DNA of 64,000 bases from Coraliomargaritaceae bacterium (GTDB lineage: Bacteria > Verrucomicrobiota > Verrucomicrobiia > Opitutales > Coraliomargaritaceae), in assembly GCA_965656495.1 (NCBI GenBank), contig CBFHKU010000003.1, positions 1 through 64,000 on the forward strand. The letters are read 5' to 3'. A model generated the notes under the pieces. That model did not search any database. It was not told the DNA's origin and was given only the letters and a program-made list of their open reading frames with translations. Below, piece by piece: positions 54,313 to 63,736 of this stretch (its first letter is position 1; each line of letters begins with the position of its first letter). A program made the translations under genes and the position numbers.

Positions 54313-54507
54313 GTGAAGAACGCTGATTCAAAAAATTGGGACAGTGTCACCTGGGCGGGCGCGGAAAAGAGCCGCCGGATACAGGATGCCCGTTTGAGCT
54401 TCCGCCAAAAACTCGAGTGGAACGCGCAGGCTCTGGAACTCACAAAACGCTTCGAGGCAGGCTGCTCTAAGGCACCGAGCACCCGCCCGCGTCCAATTAA
54501 AAATTAA
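54313..54507 (+). CDS. Small hypothetical protein
   Basis: 64 aa, GTG start; fills the galE-rfbB gap. Confidence 0.55.
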   Translation: MKNADSKNWDSVTWAGAEKSRRIQDARLSFRQKLEWNAQALELTKRFEAGCSKAPSTRPRPIKN

Positions 54508-54510
54508 GCC

Positions 54511-55716
54511 ATGAAAATTCTCGTAACCGGAGGAGCCGGATTTATCGGTTCCAATCTCGTACGACTGCTCATCAAAGAGAAGGGCGCTACCGTCATAAAT
54601 CTCGACAAGCTCACTTACGCGGGCAACCCCGAATCCCTTGCCGATCTCGCGGACGACCCCAACTACCACTTCGAATACGGAGACCTCGCCGCCCCGATTG
54701 ATACGCCTGAGACACCACCTTCACACCGTGATCAAAAATCGCTCGTCGAGATTTTTGATCACTACCAACCCGACGCGGTCATGCACCTCGCTGCCGAGAG
54801 CCATGTGGACCGTTCCATCGATGGCCCCGGCGAGTTCATTCAAACCAACATCGTCGGCACCTACAATCTGCTTCAAGCGAGTCTGCAATATTGGCGTGGC
54901 CTGCCGGAGCCAGAAAGTGAAAAAGTGAGAACGTGTGAAGGTGGAAATGTTCAATCAGAGTCCGGTGACCTTCCCACTGTCAAACCTTCCCACCTTCCCA
55001 CCCAGAAATCCTTCCGATTTCTGCACGTTTCGACTGATGAAGTCTACGGCTCCCTTGCGCCCGATGCTCTTGGGTTTTCTGAAACGACTCCTTACGATCC
55101 GCACTCCCCGTACTCTGCCTCCAAAGCCGCTTCCGACCATCTCGCCCGTGCCTGGGCCGACACCTACGGTCTGCCGGTGCTTGTCACGAACTGCTCCAAC
55201 AACTACGGACCCTACCAATTTCCCGAAAAACTCATCCCGGTGGTCATCCTCAAATGCCTGCGCGGGGAACCCATTCCCGTTTACGGAAAGGGCGAAAATA
55301 TCCGCGATTGGCTCTACGTGGGGGATCATGCCGAAGCCCTCTACGCCGTCCTAACCAAGGGTCGGGTAGGAGAGACCTACAACATCGGCGGCAACAACGA
55401 ACAGACGAACCTCAATTTGGTTAAATTAATTTGTAAGATTTTGGATCAACAGCATCCACCTTCCCACCTTCCCACTTTCACACCTTCAAACCCTGTCAGC
55501 TATGAAAGCCTAATCGGCTTTGTAGCTGACAGACCCGGCCACGACCTGCGCTACGCCATCGACGCCCGCAAGATCCGCGACGAACTCGGCTGGGAACCCA
55601 AAGAAGATTTCGAATCCGGTTTTCGCAAAACCGTACACTGGTATTTGGAAAACCAAGAGTGGTGGCAGCATATCCTTTCCGGCGACTACCAACTGGAGCG
55701 CCTGGGTAAAACTTGA
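54511..55716 (+). CDS. rfbB: dTDP-glucose 4,6-dehydratase with in-frame insertions
   Basis: [47 protein letters not shown]. Confidence 0.95.
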
Positions 55717-55734
55717 AACATTACAAATAACATC

Positions 55735-57089
55735 ATGGAAAAATAGCAATAATTGGACTGGGATACGTCGGGTTACCTCTGGGTCTTCACTTTGCGGATT
55801 CGGGTGTTTCGGTATTGGGGCTGGATGTCGATGCGGCTAAAGTAGATGCCATCAATTCCGGCAAAAGCTACATCAAGCATATTGATGCGGCAGAGATTGC
55901 GGCACAACAAGCCAGTGGAAAACTGGAGGCTTCGACGGATTTTTCGCGGGTGAGCGAAGTCGATGCGGTGCTCATCTGCGTTCCCACTCCGTTGAACAAA
56001 TACCGCGAACCGGACATTTCCTACGTGCTGAAATCAGGCGAGGCCATTGCGCCTTACCTTGCGCAGCAAGGTGTGCAAAGTTCGAGTTCAGAGTTCGAGT
56101 CAGAAACTAGCCACTCGAACACTGCCAAAGGCAGTCCACTCGAACAGTCGCGTCCAAAACTCATCGTTTTGGAGTCGACGACGTACCCCGGCACGACCGA
56201 CACGGATTTACGCAAAGTGCTCGAAGCGGGTTCGGGCCTGAAGGCGGGAGAGGATTTCTACTTGGCCTTTTCTCCGGAACGCGAGGATCCGGGTCGCAAG
56301 GACCACTCTGTGAAAACCATCCCGAAGGTCATGGGCGGTTACACCGAAGCCTGTCTAAAGCGTTGTATAGAACTCTACTCCAAGGCGCTTGATAAAGTGC
56401 ATCCGGTCAGTTCTTGCCGTTTGGCGGAAGCAACAAAGTTAACTGAAAATATCTTCCGCTCTGTTAACATTGCATTGGTCAATGAACTGAAGGTGGTCTT
56501 TCAAAAGATGGATATCGACGTGTGGGATGTCGTCGACGCTGCGGCAACCAAGCCCTTTGGCTACATGCCCTTTTATCCCGGCCCCGGCCTCGGCGGACAC
56601 TGCATTCCGATTGATCCCTTTTACATGACCTGGAAGGCCCGCGAATACGAGCAACACACCCGTTTCATTGAACTGGCAGGCGAGATCAATACCGCCATGC
56701 CGGACTATGTGATTTCCCGCGTTGCCGACGCGCTCAATGACGACGGCAAGGCGATCAAGGGCTCCAAAATTCTCCTCCTCGGCATGGCTTACAAACCGAA
56801 CGTCGATGACGACCGCGAGTCCCCCAGTTACGTCCTTATGAAGAAACTTGAGGACAAGGGCGCCATTGTTAGCTACAACGACCCGCACGTCCCCGAGATC
56901 AAGCTCACCCGCGAACATCCGGAATTTGCGGGTAGGAAGTCCGTTGCGATCACTGACGACTTCGATTGTATCCTAGTCGCCACCCATCATGCCGAATATG
57001 GTGAATATGACTTTTCAAACTTCACTGCCCCAATCGTGGATACGCGAAATTGTGTAGGCAAACGTCCTGCTAAATATTATAAAGCGTGA
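55735..57089 (+). CDS. Nucleotide-sugar dehydrogenase (WbpA/WecC-like); apparent frameshift at codon 2-3
   Basis: KIAIIGLGYVGLP, ICVPTP, ESTTYPGTT, GLGGHCIPIDP. ATG 55735 is out of frame across an A5 run. Confidence 0.88.
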
Positions 57090-57898: not shown

Positions 57899-58170
57899 AG
57901 GTTTTTTTTCGCAAACACAGTAAACCAGTGCTGGAGCTCCCATTCGCCCTACATCTAGTGCAGCGGTTGTAAAAAATCATCCTTCAATTCTATCCCAATA
58001 TGTCAGAAGACTTGATAAAGTTCTTATACTTGAATGTTTTACTCGAGCTGGCAATGGTGCACAATCCACTCTGGAGTCTATGCCACGGCTTCTCTTAAGA
58101 CTTCTCAATTGATTGCTTTACACTATTATCCAGTTGCTGCCTAGTCGAGTTGCGTCGGGTGGGTTCAGAT

Positions 58171-58491
58171 ATCCTCCTCCTCGGCATGGCATACAAACCG
58201 AACGTCGATGACGACCGCGAGTCCCCCAGTTACGTGCTCATGAAAAAACTTGAGCAACGGGGTGCAATCGTGGATTACAACGATCCTTATGTGCCTGAGA
58301 TCAAAACAAGTCGAGAGCACGCAGATCTTGCGGGTCGCCGCTCTGTTGAGATAAATGACGACTATGACTGTATATTGCTGGCCACCCACCATGACGAATA
58401 TAGGGAGTTCGACTTTTCGGACTTTGCCAGCCCTGTGGTGGATACGCGAAATTGTATTACTAAACGCCCGATGAAATTTTTTCGAGCATAG
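58171..58491 (+). pseudogene. Duplicated 3' fragment of the nucleotide-sugar dehydrogenase
   Basis: 321 nt colinear with 56769-57089 (ILLLGMAYKPNVDDDRESPS..VDTRNC); no 5' part. Confidence 0.92.
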
Positions 58492-58522: not shown

Positions 58523-59575
58523 ATGGCTAAATATCTCGTAACCGGCGTTGCCGGATTTATCGCATCACGCACGGCCCAGTTTCTTTTGGAACAAGGGCAC
58601 GAAGTTGTCGGCGTCGACAATCTGAATGATTATTATGACGTCAGGTTGAAATACTACCGTCTTTTCGAACTCGCGAAGGCATCGGGAGGGGCAGCTGGCA
58701 TTGTTGCAGATTTGGATAAGTCGTTTCGTGAATCGACACAGCCGTCTGGCGTATGGGAGGCGGGCAACTTTCGCTTCTTGCAACTCGATATCGAAGATAA
58801 GGGGGCGGTTCTCGACTTGTTCAAAGCGCATCAGTTTGATGCAGTCTTAAATCTAGCTGCCCGTGCTGGTGTTCGCTACAGTATGGAAAATCCCGATGTC
58901 TATATGACGACAAATGCCATGGGCACTCTGCACCTCATGGACGGAATGAAAGCAACGGGGGTGAAGAAACTTGTATTGGCATCCACTTCTTCCCTCTACG
59001 CGGGCCAGCCGATGCCCTTCACAGAGACCTTGCCGGTGAATTCGCCCATATCGCCTTATGCCGCTTCAAAGAAAGCGGCTGAGATGATGGCTTACAGCTA
59101 CAGTTACCTCTACGATCTGGATGTGTCGGTGGTGCGCTATTTTACGGTTTTTGGTCCCTGTGGGCGCCCGGATATGTGTATCTTCCGCTTCACGAATTGG
59201 ATCGATGCCGGTGTGCCAATCGAACTGTTTGGCGATGGCAGTCAAAGTCGTGATTTCACCTATGTCGATGATATCGCTCGTGGCACAATTGCAGCACTCA
59301 AGCCCGTGGGGTATGAAGTCTTTAATCTCGGCGGTGGCAATAACCCGATCTCACTAAAACAGATCATAGAATGGATCGAAGAGGGGCTGGGCAAAAAAGC
59401 CAACTACGACCATAAACCCTTTCATAAAGCGGACATAAAGGAGACTTGGGCCGATATTTCAAAAGCGGAGCGGATGCTCGGCTGGAAGCCCCAGGTTGGT
59501 GTAAAGGAAGGGCTGGATCAAACAACAGAGTGGTATTTTGCAAATAGAGAGTGGCTGCAGGGTGTGTCTCTGTAG
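58523..59575 (+). CDS. NAD-dependent sugar epimerase (UDP-glucuronate 4-epimerase-like)
   Basis: TGVAGFI, NLAARAGVRYS, YAASKK, RYFTVFGPCGRPDM. Confidence 0.9.
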   Translation: MAKYLVTGVAGFIASRTAQFLLEQGHEVVGVDNLNDYYDVRLKYYRLFELAKASGGAAGIVADLDKSFRESTQPSGVWEAGNFRFLQLDIEDKGAVLDLFKAHQFDAVLNLAARAGVRYSMENPDVYMTTNAMGTLHLMDGMKATGVKKLVLASTSSLYAGQPMPFTETLPVNSPISPYAASKKAAEMMAYSYSYLYDLDVSVVRYFTVFGPCGRPDMCIFRFTNWIDAGVPIELFGDGSQSRDFTYVDDIARGTIAALKPVGYEVFNLGGGNNPISLKQIIEWIEEGLGKKANYDHKPFHKADIKETWADISKAERMLGWKPQVGVKEGLDQTTEWYFANREWLQGVSL

Positions 59576-59608: not shown

Positions 59609-59866
59609 ATGAAAGGAATCATACTTGCAGGCGGTGCTGGCACCCGACTACACCCGATCACACTGGCTGTTTCTAAACAGTTGATGCCGATCTATGACAA
59701 GCCGATGATCTATTATCCGCTGTCCGTGCTTATGCTGGCAGGGATTAACGAAATCCTGATTATCACGACACCGGAAGATCAGCCGGCTTTCCAGCGCTTG
59801 CTGGGCGATGGCTCCGAGCTGGAGCGGTTGGGGACGAGCGAAGCTCGTGATGGTGAACAATACTGA
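59609..59866 (+). pseudogene. Truncated rfbA (codons ~1-70) fused to an rfbB-like C-terminus
   Basis: [16 protein letters not shown] followed by ERLG; rfbB ends QLERLGKT. Confidence 0.88.
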
Positions 59867-59880
59867 ATGGGTGATACTGG

Positions 59881-60237
59881 ATGGGTGACGGACTTAAAGA
59901 TTTTGAGGAGATGGAGGTGTGGCAAGATGCTCGGCAGTTGGCAGTTGGTGTCTACTCCGATTTCTCACAAGTAAAAGACTTCTCCTTCTGCGATCAGATT
60001 AAGCGGGCGGTCATATCCATATCTAATAATATTGCCGAGGGGTGCGGCCGGACTACCAAAACTGAATTTGCTCGATTTCTAGATATTGCGAAAGGTTCAA
60101 GTGCAGAGGTTCGGAGTATGTATAGGGTTGCCGAAGCACTTGAATTTATTTCTACATGCACAGCACAAAGGCGCTGTGAATCTTGCGTGAGTATTTCTAA
60201 ACAGTTAAGTGGCTTTGCAAAGCACCTTCGAAAGTAG
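59881..60237 (+). CDS. Four-helix-bundle protein (23S IVP/TIGR02436-like)
   Basis: FEEMEVWQDA..DQIKRA..ISNNIAEG..FLDIAKGS..EVRS. Confidence 0.92.
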   Translation: MGDGLKDFEEMEVWQDARQLAVGVYSDFSQVKDFSFCDQIKRAVISISNNIAEGCGRTTKTEFARFLDIAKGSSAEVRSMYRVAEALEFISTCTAQRRCESCVSISKQLSGFAKHLRK

Positions 60238-60412
60238 GTTTCCAATCGAGCATTGAGCATCAAATATTAACTATCAAAAATCTCTGATTTTTTCCATAAA
60301 AGGAATCATACTCGCCGATGGCGCCGGCTCCCTTCAGCATTCCAGACTTGGGCACCTAATGAGTGTTCGTAAAAGAAATTGATTCAGAGCCGTAATCTGC
60401 TAACTTTACCAA

Positions 60413-60628
60413 ATGACCGCTCTTGAAAAAGAAATACTCAGTTTACCTAAACTGCAGAAAATCAGCATTATGGAAAAAATTTGGGTCGATCTTCTAAAAG
60501 AAGAGGAGGCGATTGAACTGCCTGAATGGCATCTTGAGGAACTCGCAAAAACAGAAAAAAGCATTCAAAAGGGCAGGGAACATTTTCAGGATTGGGAAGT
60601 AGCCAAAAAAGCGATTCGTGAGGCATGA
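60413..60628 (+). CDS. Addiction-module antitoxin (TIGR02574-like)
   Basis: LSLP..KI.IME.IW..L, PEWH.EEL, DWEVAK. Confidence 0.85.
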   Translation: MTALEKEILSLPKLQKISIMEKIWVDLLKEEEAIELPEWHLEELAKTEKSIQKGREHFQDWEVAKKAIREA

Positions 60629-60915
60629 ATCTGAGGATTCTAACTGCAGCCTCCCGAGATTTAGTGAAAGGAAAGAAGCTCTATGAGCGTCAATAAGTAG
60701 GCTTGGGAGGATATTTCTTAGACACCCTCTATTCTGACATTGACTCTTTGATTTTGTATGCGGGCATCCATCGAAAAATACGCGGTTATCACTGCATGTT
60801 TTCGAGGCGCTTTCCTTATGCGGTTTATTACAAAACAGAATCGAATGAGATTCGAGTGTATCGAGTGATGGACTGCAGACAAGATCCTCGAAAAACATTG
60901 AAAGCACTGAAGTAG
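60625..60915 (+). pseudogene. RelE/ParE toxin with an in-frame stop
   Basis: ATGA-coupled to the antitoxin: MNLRIL..YERQ*VGLGGYF..RFPYAVYY..DCRQDP; TAA at 60694-60696. Confidence 0.85.
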
Positions 60916-61263
60916 TGCGAACTAAAAATTCAAAGAATTTTTCCATGAAAGAAAGCATAAACCTCATCTGCGTGCATAGCGATTATGATTTAGTGCTACT
61001 TTTGCCGGATGACTGCGATCAATGGCTTGAGAAAGTCGCTACGCGACAGTTCTAGTTTATAGTTCGAGAGCTGGAACTCCAAACTGAACACTCAAACTAA
61101 AAATTAAGGAATTTTTCCATGGCGGCCATACGCTTCCCCCCATCCAGCATCGCCGTAAGGCCCATCGCTTCTGACTCCTTTACGCCTTTATGAGTCTATT
61201 AACTTACCTTTAGACCGCAAAGTTACGTTGACCTACCTTTCAAGTCTGTTGAGATTTCATACT

Positions 61264-61572
61264 ATGAAAAACGTGTCGATTCGCTCTCTCGCTAAAACAG
61301 CCGGGTTGGCGTCGGGGGCTGATGCAGTTTATTTATTTGGTTCTCGAGCAACCGGACGCAACCGCTCGGACAGCGATTATGATTTAGCGCTACTTTTGCC
61401 GGATGAGTGCGATCAATGGCAAGCGACTCGCGATGCACAGCGTTCACTCTGGCCGCGCCCTGTGCCAATCGACCTGGTTCCAATTACCAAGAAAAGTTGG
61501 GAAGATGGAAGCAACGCCTTCATCAGAGAAGTACGCAAAACCGGTAAACTTCTTTTTTCAAGAGATGGATAA
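61264..61572 (+). CDS. Minimal nucleotidyltransferase (MNT) antitoxin
   Basis: YLFGSRATGRNRSDSDYDL (GS-x10-DxD), IDLV. Confidence 0.9.
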   Translation: MKNVSIRSLAKTAGLASGADAVYLFGSRATGRNRSDSDYDLALLLPDECDQWQATRDAQRSLWPRPVPIDLVPITKKSWEDGSNAFIREVRKTGKLLFSRDG

Positions 61573-61948
61573 TCTCGAAACTGGCAAATGGTTTGCTCAA
61601 GCTGAAGATGACTTCGCTTATGGCTGCGACGGAGTCGCTTCGCATCCGCGTGGAGCCACATGGAATTTTCACCAAGCCGCAGAAAAAGCGATTAAGGCGA
61701 TCCTTATTTCTCAGGAGAAAGATTTTCCACGGACACATGATCTGCCGCGACTATTGACGATACTTCAGTTGGAACCATCGGCCAGCGACACGGTGGCTCA
61801 AGCGGCATTCATTCTTTCCAGTTTTCTGCCGCTCACTCGTTATCCGGGCGATTGGCCCGAAATCAATGAAGCTAGGGCCAAAGAGGCCAAAGAAGCTTCG
61901 AAGATTATTCTGAGTTGGGCACGCAAACACTTTCAGCAGAAATTGTAA
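61565..61948 (+). CDS. HEPN-domain protein
   Basis: W..QAEDD, FHQAAEKAIKA, RTHDL, TRYP; overlaps the MNT stop. Confidence 0.9.
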   Translation: MDNLETGKWFAQAEDDFAYGCDGVASHPRGATWNFHQAAEKAIKAILISQEKDFPRTHDLPRLLTILQLEPSASDTVAQAAFILSSFLPLTRYPGDWPEINEARAKEAKEASKIILSWARKHFQQKL

Positions 61949-61977
61949 GATTTACGAAGCGATCTCTTTTACTTACT

Positions 61978-62115
61978 AGTTCGAGTTATTAGTTCGAGTT
62001 GATAGTTTAAGAGCTCGAACTCCAAACTGAACACTCGAACTAAAGCAATGCGACCACTCGAACACCAGCAACGCTGTAAAAGTGTTCTACTATAACTAAA
62101 AACTCGAACTAAAAT
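61978..62115. repeat. AGTTCGAGT / ACTCGAAC(T) inverted short-repeat cluster
   Basis: Forward copies at 61978 and 61991; reverse copies at ~62033, 62056 and 62102. A partial copy lies at 61049-61100. Confidence 0.8.
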
Positions 62116-62131
62116 TTCGGAGAAATTTTCT

Positions 62132-62992
62132 ATGAAAGGAATCATACTAGCCGGTGGTGCCGGCTCCCGTTTACATCCCATCACGCTGGCAGTCTCCAAG
62201 CAGCTCATGCCAGTTTACGATAAGCCGATGATCTACTATCCGCTATCGGTCTTGATGCTGGCAGGGATCAACGAGATCCTGATCATTACGACTCCCGAGG
62301 ATCAGCCGGCTTTTAAGCGCCTGCTGGGGGATGGCTCCGAGCTCGGCTGCCGTTTTCAATACGCGATCCAGGAGGTGCCTAACGGTTTGGCACAGGCCTT
62401 TGTGATCGGTAAAGACTTTATCGGGGATGATAAGGTCGCCTTGGTCCTCGGGGATAATATTTTTTATGGTTCTGGTTTTGGGGAGCTGGTTCGCCGCCAC
62501 ACCGATCCCGATGGCGCGGTTATCTTTGCCGCCAGCGTCCACGATCCAGAGCGCTACGGCGTGGTGGAGTTCGACGAGCAGGAGAACGCTATCTCCATCG
62601 AGGAAAAGCCTGCGCAGCCAAAATCCAATTACGCCGTTCCGGGGCTCTACTTTTACGATAACGATGTGGTCGAAATCGCTGAAACCATCGAGCCCTCCGC
62701 TCGGGGCGAATACGAGATTACCACCGTCAATCAGGTTTACCTGGAGCGGAAAAAGCTCAAAGTTGGCGTATTCAACCGAGGCATCGCATGGCTGGATACT
62801 GGCACTTTCGCTTCACTCAACGAGGCTTCGACCTTCGTCCGCGTCATCGAACAACGGCAGGACACCAAGATCGGCTGTATCGAGGAAGTTGCCTTTTATT
62901 CAAAGTTCATTGATTGTGAACAATTGTTAAAATTGGCTCAGAAATTAGAGAAGTCCGGCTACGGTGATTATCTCTTAAGAATAGCTAAGTGA
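62132..62992 (+). CDS. rfbA: Glucose-1-phosphate thymidylyltransferase
   Basis: [45 protein letters not shown]. Confidence 0.97.
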
Positions 62993-63002
62993 TCGTCGCA
63001 TC

Positions 63003-63736
63003 ATGCCGCAATCAACCAGTCGAGAGCTTTTCATGCGAAAAGTCTCTGATGCATTAGAGCAATATCCCGCACTTTACTGCTGTGTCATGGTACGTCGCTT
63101 AGGTCCGCAACGCGCCTACAATCGTGTGGTGCATCCTTTGACCGATATCACGATTGAGGGCTTCCCTCGCTGTGCCAATAGTTTTGCCGTGCAGGCTTTT
63201 CGATCCGCGAATGATGTAAACCGACCTCTTAGAATTGCGACACATTTGCACTCTACTGCAAATGTGGTGCAATCCATTCGTTTAAAAATTCCCACTGTGG
63301 TTTTGATCCGCAACCCTGGGGATGCCTTGGTTTCATGGCTTTCTTTAGCGATTCAATTGAATAAAATATCTGAAACTTCGCGCACCGACCAAAATCAACT
63401 TCGCAGGATGACTTATTGGAAAAAATCGCTATGCGTCTTTTTACGAGCGTTTGATGTCCTACCGCCCAGCCATGGTCTGTCTTGATTTTAATGAAGTCGT
63501 TACTGATTTCGGTGCCTGCATCGAGCGTATTAACCAACACTTCAGCACAGAATTTCATTTATTTCGGCATACGGAGACACAAGTGGACGAAATCTTTAAA
63601 CGCTCCAAGGTGCATTTGTCACCATCAGTCGAGCGAGAGCAAATTAAAGAAGAAATTAAAGAATTGTATGCTTCAAAAAACCAATTCGGCCAATCGGGAG
63701 CGTGCCCAGTCCGCCTATAACTTATTTTTGAGCTAA
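63003..63736 (+). pseudogene. Sulfotransferase-like protein with two apparent frameshifts
   Basis: IEGFPRCANSF and LIRNPGDALVS resemble PAPS-binding motifs. The frame changes at A6 runs 63420-63425 and 63675-63680. Confidence 0.6.

Follow-up and report, generated by a model that had tools for sequence, protein, structure and literature searches.

A stack of truncated rfbA starts with small passenger genes between them in the cell-surface sugar locus of a Coraliomargaritaceae bacterium

The window analysed here, a stretch of 64,000 nucleotides (nt) from a Coraliomargaritaceae bacterium (assembly GCA_965656495.1, contig CBFHKU010000003.1, positions 1 to 64,000), carries an operon for the synthesis of cell-surface sugars, in which the start of one gene, rfbA (rmlA), recurs several times ahead of the working copy. 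This operon runs in the order wecA-like gene, epimerase, uxs, VapBC, galE, rfbB, ugd, VapBC, ugd stub, epimerase, array of repeated starts and rfbA, the names wecA, uxs, gae and ugd being labels given from Pfam families. We found that the array consists of 5' stubs of rfbA, belonging to three alleles or more, stacked with small passenger genes in the intervals (Table 1). The genome that holds the window (G000, with the window as its contig C3; compared genomes are numbered G001 and so on) has a size of 2.06 Mb and is 99.4% complete, with a contamination of 0%. Synteny with five same-genus genomes ends at the 3' end of rfbB (about position 55,660), beyond which there was no match at E <= 1e-5, and the window rfbA, used as a query, matched in none of six same-genus genomes; the variable cluster downstream of rfbA extends to about 85 kb. 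Since same-genus synteny stops at the rfbB end, the array lies in the junction zone where a conserved block meets an exchanged cluster.

When the junction of the real rfbA (-45 to +60) was compared by BLAST with the window between 52 and 64 kb, it matched at 59609 (E 2e-13), 60290 (2e-11), 60918 (4e-8) and about 61082-61121 (1e-3). The five occurrences of the start that a sequence-only reading of this DNA had listed, four of them besides the real gene, are thus all present, and the repeats are real and beyond chance. They are not equal copies: three clear leftover rfbA starts and a doubtful fourth stand ahead of the working gene, and these stubs end at differing positions, at codon 71, about codon 16, about codon 5 and codon 1. 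Among 79 rfbA loci from other groups, no truncated rfbA coding copy lies upstream; one of these loci has a second whole gene, and a few show matches of 14-29 nt (E 0.004-0.016). A survey of the class gave matches to the rfbA start in 330 of 401 genomes, 30 of which match twice and none more often. The leaders of copy 3 and of the real gene do not occur again in G000 with up to six substitutions allowed. Today the array is mostly a relic, in which the ParE-like toxin gene is broken, while the four-helix-bundle gene, the antitoxin gene and the pair of minimal nucleotidyltransferase (MNT) and HEPN genes are intact.

Table 1. Features of the array and its surroundings (window coordinates).
Feature	Coordinates	Strand	Details
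3' stub of a second ugd allele, behind the VapBC pair	58161..58491	+	74% nt identity to 56759-57058
NAD-dependent epimerase, between ugd stub and copy 1	58523..59575	+	64-66% aa identity to best relatives
Copy 1: rfbA 5' stub, 71 codons, undecayed foreign allele	59609..59821	+	82% nt identity to real gene
rfbB 3' tip fused in frame to copy 1 (LERLG...)	59819..59866	+	ends at stop of 85-aa chimeric open reading frame (ORF)
Four-helix-bundle gene, short-repeat arms on both sides	59881..60237	+	PF05635, TIGR02436
Copy 2: foreign-type rfbA leader and about 16 decayed codons	60269..60344	+	start changed to ATA
Upstream region and antitoxin gene	60349..60628	+	PF09720; ORF 60413-60628
RelE/ParE-like toxin gene, broken by stop	60625..60915	+	in-frame stop at codon 24, 60694-60696
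Copy 3: resident-type leader and about 5 decayed rfbA codons	60918..60959	+	83% over 42 nt to real junction
Fragment from inside an MNT gene, left over from a second MNT-HEPN unit	60963..61026	+	55/64 nt (96% over 49) to 61357-61420
Copy 4: repeat arm, copy-3-type leader and ATG	61048..61121	+	arm 47/53 nt to 61991-62043
MNT antitoxin gene	61264..61572	+	PF18765/PF01909; NF047752 below cut-off
HEPN toxin gene	61565..61948	+	PF05168, E 1e-15
Gene-less inverted short-repeat arms and hairpin leader of real rfbA	61975..62131	+	
rfbA (rmlA), intact, first gene of the variable polysaccharide cluster	62132..62992	+	TIGR01207 over cut-off

The outermost stub, copy 1, had been described as a decaying copy of 70 codons; it is indeed a repeat, but it comprises 71 codons and is not decaying, as 33 of its codon differences from the real gene are silent and 3 are conservative. 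Silent codon differences of the rfbA 5' ends of 23 relatives amount to 29-44 against copy 1 and 24-39 against the real gene, the distance of copy 1 to the real gene is comparable to that of the alleles of other genera, its 33 silent differences falling within the range of 26-44 that separates the real gene from family alleles, and the rfbA allele of G012 differs from copy 1 by a single amino acid. With silent differences and distances at the level of alleles, copy 1 is thus not a decaying duplicate but the working allele of a different lineage, and its cut is recent. In a 213-nt tree it is not the sister of the real 5' end, at weak support (81/75) and with no starred branch, and its leader is unrelated to the other leaders (score 9-14; 473 of 500 shuffles reach the best family score).

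Past codon 71 of copy 1, the reading frame continues with LERLG, which is the usual RfbB end in the family, and the resulting chimeric ORF stops 14 nt before the start of the four-helix-bundle gene. Scored with a matrix of rfbB ends from 17 relatives, the 12 bases past the break reach the value of the window's own rfbB end, as do 27 of 4,124,026 genome positions. The joint between copy 1 and the rfbB tip would fall at about 59817-59822, in a presumed microhomology of 5-6 nt. G096 lends independent support with an intact counterpart of this arrangement: its rfbB, four-helix-bundle gene and rfbA, the last with a leader like that of copy 2, are collinear with module 1, and its four-helix-bundle protein is 73% identical in amino acids to that of the window over residues 6-90. 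G102 has the same order of rfbB, four-helix bundle and rfbA with a more distant four-helix gene, and a four-helix gene stands directly 5' of 4 of 26 rfbA starts in relatives (G096, G102, G084 and G052). The rfbB tip and the G096 layout together indicate that module 1 derives from a foreign rfbB-to-rfbA interval, of which a piece was joined into a different rfbA.

A hidden Markov model (HMM) of 21 rfbA 5' ends, applied with nhmmer, detects a coding match of 49 nt in copy 2 (60296-60344, E 5e-8) and no rfbA coding match in copies 3 and 4, so that of these three proposed rfbA starts only copy 2 holds as coding sequence. The copy 2 leader scores 30 against the leaders of G084 and G012 and 14 against the resident leader, and none of 500 shuffles scores as high. 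Copies 1 and 2 are foreign alleles that are distinct from the real rfbA. The proposal that modules were added at the rfbA start together with new starts is upheld by these foreign alleles of copies 1 and 2 and by the donor layout in G096. The sequence following copy 2 was also tried as a second rfbB tip, a candidate that was rejected (287 of 300 shuffles); it is the TA (toxin-antitoxin) upstream region that also occurs in G090.

Most of the initial gene calls were confirmed, namely the four-helix bundle, the antitoxin, MNT and HEPN (PF05635, PF09720, PF18765 and PF05168), while the ParE label is weak: Pfam ParE has no match in the window's toxin fragment, and the intact, 91%-identical toxin homologue in G101 matches PF05016 below the cut-off (E 0.009). 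The in-frame stop codon of the parE-like gene had been overlooked. This antitoxin/ParE-like module is 91% identical in nt to modules in G090, between rfbB and an epimerase gene, and in G101, beside an ABC-type gene; in both, homology ends at most 5 nt from the toxin stop codon, and neither is accompanied by an rfbA start. The MNT-HEPN pair has a 79% identical counterpart inside a TA cluster of G069, with no rfbA start in the adjacent DNA, in which an N gap lies 20 nt past HEPN. The same boundary motif, predicted for the modules of relatives, is thus missing beside the homologous modules of G090, G101 and G069 in the adjoining DNA compared. PADLOC, run on five proteins, matched one of them, MNT, and this to candidate PDC-S09 models only.

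Copies 3 and 4 share a common leader type with the real rfbA (scores 32-38, compared with 27 for the best foreign leader). Copy 3 retains 13 of the 15 bases of the rfbA start, copy 4 the leader and the ATG only, and the last 23 nt of copy 4 agree with copy 3 at 20 positions and with the real leader at 15. Moreover, module 3 maps in order onto module 4, both in the MNT part (55 of 64 nt) and in the arm (47 of 53 nt). An unequal crossover of copy 3 with the arm that precedes the real rfbA may, with chances that we consider roughly balanced, be the source of copy 4 and of the MNT fragment; a hybrid of this kind would lose the 69 nt of the real leader that are missing from copy 4. Since decay is least in the outermost copy and copy 4 probably marks the joint of a duplication, the order of the array does not conform to the simple serial addition that had been suggested. 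Two further identities tried for the sequence after copy 4, the ugd downstream region (66 of 300 shuffles) and decayed rfbA codons 9-23 (461 of 1000 shuffles), were rejected.

Arm words from the DNA before the real rfbA recur between ugd and rfbA in G084 and G090, and in these two genomes the rfbA leader also stands before ugd or the epimerase gene gae. As leaders and arm words also precede other genes, the shared leader is best interpreted as the terminal part of a short-repeat arm. Perfect mini-hairpins with three-base GNA loops lie at or near module joints (59834-59848, 61035-61047 and 62112-62130); four such hairpins occur in 2.7 kb, compared with 0.07 per kb genome-wide. Rfam gave no match at E <= 0.1 between 54.0 and 63.5 kb of the window, and scans for promoters and terminators remained at chance level.

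Integrons and CALINs (clusters of attC sites lacking integron-integrases) are co-oriented arrays of small genes, TA pairs included. The window array is likewise co-oriented, but it has no IntI, no family attC and no fixed crossover point, as its stub ends vary and the homologous modules of the three relatives carry no rfbA start. The statement that no recombinase gene stands beside the array was borne out: there is no serine or tyrosine recombinase in or beside the stack (PF00589 and PF00239 were searched; the large serine recombinase domain PF07508 had no separate search), and the four PF00589 matches and one PF00239 match of G000 are all on other contigs. An integron integrase (TIGR02249) is present in five of five relatives tested, with arrays of their own, and none exceeds the cut-off in G000 (searched with 8,000 bases withheld), where the best match reaches 80.8 of 265 bits. 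An attC HMM, which was built from 17 attC-like sites beside the relatives' integrases and finds 6 sites in a leave-out control, has no match at E <= 1 in the window between 50 and 64 kb and none in the TA array of G012 described below. It does find five sites elsewhere in G000 (C7:19422-28802 and C1:310759-315661), which, with no integrase in the genome, are probable CALIN relics. A textbook attC consensus matched nothing in the window, a weak test, since it matched only one of six stretches beside the relatives' integrases; the integron integrases of G012, G096 and G106 have 460-480 aa, and the attC-like sites of these arrays mostly escape the textbook end consensus. In outcome the array somewhat resembles an integron, yet it is not one, and the suggested integron-like accretion is not supported.

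Similar scars occur at other genes of the sugar locus and in relatives. The ugd stub, located 1.4 kb upstream of the array, has 33 silent codon differences from ugd and is the same kind of scar at another gene; ugd (56790-56833) and the stub (58192-58235) share an exact 44-nt tract, perhaps a conversion or crossover tract. In G069, gae 1-22 is followed by MNT-HEPN and the 3' part of rfbA, in G113 rfbA 210-286 stands after TA genes, and in G106 rfbB 1-61 is fused to 330-401. Relatives also retain 3' pieces of uxs (G102), the epimerase (G084) and ugd (G103), G023 has an isolated rfbA 1-31, and the rfbB end of G002 is cut; this list leaves out a short rfbA match in G035 (contig end) and a short rfbB match in G103 (edge of the sequence compared). 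Gain and loss of TA genes are not special to the rfbA site, as other operon junctions vary across the genus: the uxs-galE junction is filled with TA genes in G000, G005 and G006 and empty in G001, G002 and G004, and here, where both flanks are conserved, TA pairs swap without scars. A 64-aa orphan gene (54313-54507) has a nucleotidyltransferase partner in G005, G012 and G083, which is missing in G000 and G006.

The single-contig genome G012 carries six TA pairs between two rfbB copies (C1:1538000-1551000), with further pairs upstream, mosaic spacers and GTAG-type hairpins in these spacers; its array is a larger version of the same hotspot. A 22-nt spacer word occurs 12 times with at most one mismatch inside 10.5 kb of G012 and 10 times more loosely elsewhere, and once forms the arm of a GxxExxY gene. 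In G000 itself, a near-identical, decayed duplicate of the lepA start and leader lies 780 bp upstream of lepA (C4:90753-90960, minus strand); it flanks a foreign gene on the other strand and is a clean long target duplication. A defence-looking island (C7:9500-19000) and a TA cluster (C5:32350-34620) of the same genome, whose genes were identified by eye only, are bounded by duplicated host-gene 3' ends.

The epimerase before copy 1 is part of a 1.66-kb block that is cut at both ends; its best relatives, in 3 of 100 family genomes at E <= 1e-110, share 64-66% of amino acids. The ugd gene after rfbB has a frameshift directly after its ATG (55734-55760), with the conserved N-terminal motif in another frame, and an in-frame repeat-arm insertion at about 56079-56120. 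Two in-frame low-complexity insertions of rfbB (54511-55716), at about 54935-55030 and 55450-55490, are missing in shorter relatives and are likely repeat-arm insertions within coding sequence. A sulfotransferase-like gene 3' of rfbA (63003-63720) is seemingly split into two overlapping frames.

What can be seen directly at the locus and in relatives are the foreign alleles of copies 1 and 2, one in-frame joint, the donor layout, variable TA slots and passengers that often stand directly before rfbA. To explain these, we propose, with about equal confidence and doubt, that the array grew by recombinase-free capture with one-sided joints in the rfbA 5' end, that is, by homology-facilitated illegitimate recombination (HFIR), together with duplication and erosion. 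Incoming DNA from the sugar locus of another strain would pair with rfbA or with sequence beyond it, while its other side would join the resident rfbA illegitimately, at a few matching bases inside the first codons, so that the old start remains behind the newly arrived passenger and rfbA. A joint that fell further upstream would remove a TA pair or the epimerase and be selected against, and survivors would therefore be cut between passenger and anchor. The inner block (59.8-62.1 kb) was probably built earlier in a donor lineage and arrived last, in one step, at copy 1, which would account for the freshness of the outermost stub; the crossover of copy 3 with the arm that precedes the real rfbA, and subsequent deletions, would have given copy 4 and the MNT fragment. 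Formation of the joint at capture, the timing, selection by addiction and uptake by transformation would be the conjectural parts of this scheme; ComEC and DprA genes are present in G000.

Several observations weigh against this explanation. ComEC and DprA are also found in 10 and 11 of 14 control genomes, respectively, and do not establish competence. A capture joint and a later deletion are not separated by these data, clear deletion products are common in the locus, as in rfbB of G106, and two whole rfbA alleles do exist in one locus, in G084. As none of 26 rfbA starts in relatives (4 of them with less than 2 kb upstream) has a truncated rfbA coding copy upstream, the repeated use of this start is seen in one genome only. 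The matrix test for the rfbB tip was devised after the match had been noticed, and an unanchored alignment of the sequence past copy 1 with 74 gene ends was equalled by 22 of 300 shuffles. No gene end matches the left borders that follow copies 2, 3 and 4 (287, 243 and 66 of 300 shuffles), no crossover or switch of the nearest allele appears along the real rfbA in a mapping without power, and the sequence after the ATG differs between copies 3 and 4 more than would be expected of a recent duplication.

Two complete rfbA alleles in the G084 locus and two rfbB in G012 and G106 are also what would be expected if whole rfb segments with a complete rfbA had been stacked in tandem, and if microhomology deletions had later spared the addictive TA pairs and left the 5' stubs. 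Internal deletion products in rfbB of G106, in G113 and in module 3, the loss from G000 and G006 of the nucleotidyltransferase partner that the 64-aa gene at 54313 has in G005, and serial-deletion remnants in Salmonella O-antigen clusters (PMC3715488; this and the other cited papers are drawn on in part) point in the same direction. We consider such a history, the main rival of one-sided capture, rather unlikely: it needs three or four stacked rfbA-bearing segments and an entry mechanism of its own, only 30 of the 330 matching genomes of the class have two matches to the rfbA start and none has more, and copy 1 was undecayed before it was cut. Our data do not separate it from one-sided capture, as both share the foreign origin and differ only in the timing of the cut. 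Modules might alternatively have inserted at the start of the resident rfbA, each duplicating 30-200 bp of that start, as in the long target duplications of restriction-modification units, for which near-identical repeats of 45-47 bp without mobile genes are described (Furuta et al., PMC2853133). The leader shared by copies 3, 4 and the real gene and the lepA duplicate in G000 agree with this idea, which is refuted for copies 1 and 2, since these are not duplicates of the resident start and copy 1 joins an rfbB tip; none of the six same-genus genomes in which rfbA was sought provides an empty-site strain. Long target duplication, improbable for the array as a whole, may explain copy 3 only, whose 83% identity over 42 nt would fit if the event was old.

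A dedicated cassette system, in which an integron-like or repeat-arm-guided recombinase acts in trans and inserts TA modules at the hairpin leader of rfbA, would account for the A/T hairpin just before the ATG in four of five copies and for the six TA pairs with their 12 near-exact 22-nt words in G012, and integron integrases in the five relatives tested, two Y1 transposases and the attC relics in G000 could be read in its favour. We regard it as very improbable, because G000 has no integron integrase, neither the window nor the G012 array has a family attC, break points vary, and three of three homologous modules in relatives are without an rfbA start. Furthermore, the G012 word also forms an arm of the GxxExxY gene, and the leaders of G090 and G084 also precede ugd and gae, which makes the leader a dispersed arm end and not an rfbA-specific site. 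That the array is an assembly artefact or a strain chimera in a metagenome-assembled genome is hardly credible, even though the contig of the closest relative (G006) ends at rfbB: exact repeats touching the array reach 20 nt at most, the exact match of copy 1 to the real start is 17 nt long, the region from 54 to 64 kb contains no N, the copies are alleles that have diverged, and contamination is 0%.

One-sided capture has a published counterpart in the orphan immunity arrays of Vibrio cholerae's type VI secretion system (T6SS), for which HFIR was proposed and which were compared with integrons in the absence of evidence for an integrase (Kirchberger et al. 2017, PMC5361080); orphan modules of Rhs and contact-dependent inhibition systems are cited there alongside. 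HFIR is RecA-dependent and rare (PMC6382021). On this reading, both the T6SS arrays and the window array combine serial one-sided capture at a conserved gene, absence of an integrase, foreign small genes and remnants of displaced alleles, but the T6SS arrays have an upstream anchor and push back old 3' parts, whereas the window has 5' stubs of a sugar-nucleotide gene and an intracellular cargo of TA and four-helix genes. Remnant and incoming gene belong to different lineages, as HFIR requires, in copies 1 and 2, and an illegitimate joint at a short, presumed microhomology is found at one place, between copy 1 and the rfbB tip. In the Gal-initiated O-antigen set of Salmonella, rml genes are recombination sites with gene remnants at junctions (PMC3715488); there as here, exchange at the margin of a variable cluster takes place at rmlB and rmlA, and remnants and serial deletions mark the junctions, while the window differs in its three to four remnants of one gene start within 2.5 kb, all of which stand behind TA-type passengers. 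Restriction-modification units (Furuta et al. 2010, PMC2853133) resemble it as selfish pairs with direct repeats of more than 30 bp and no mobility gene, yet theirs are near-identical repeats of one target, unlike the foreign alleles of copies 1 and 2. Module 1 corresponds to the unit of evolution of the S. aureus lpl cluster, 3'-ORF/intergenic/5'-ORF (Tsuru and Kobayashi 2008, PMC2568036), with rfbB tip, intergenic passenger and rfbA start; both ends of the lpl unit recombine homologously within tandem paralogues, whereas one end is illegitimate in the window. Our literature search, with subscription papers mostly outside it and no supplements, found no TA arrays or four-helix cassettes at rml or rfb genes in this arrangement.

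The array is a well-preserved junction scar in a hypervariable sugar locus, and it likely consists of the scars of repeated gene swaps. It provides a readable fossil record of how TA pairs pile up without a mobility gene of their own, in which one joint is traceable both to the base and to a layout of the donor that relatives retain today. Because the ingredients are known, the surprise is moderate. Such arrays could also be taken wrongly for integrons, of which the family has true examples elsewhere. It is doubtful whether the surface-polysaccharide operons of the family are, more broadly, an integrase-free TA accretion platform, with the repeat arms of four-helix-bundle and GxxExxY cassettes and a conserved sugar-gene start as portable recombination sites by which addiction modules are added, duplicated and dropped, as in the six-pair array of G012, and with TA pairs that steer the joins of O-antigen clusters. 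If addiction modules do force joints between themselves and rfbA, this would bias the swapping of surface sugar clusters, which are likely phage receptors.

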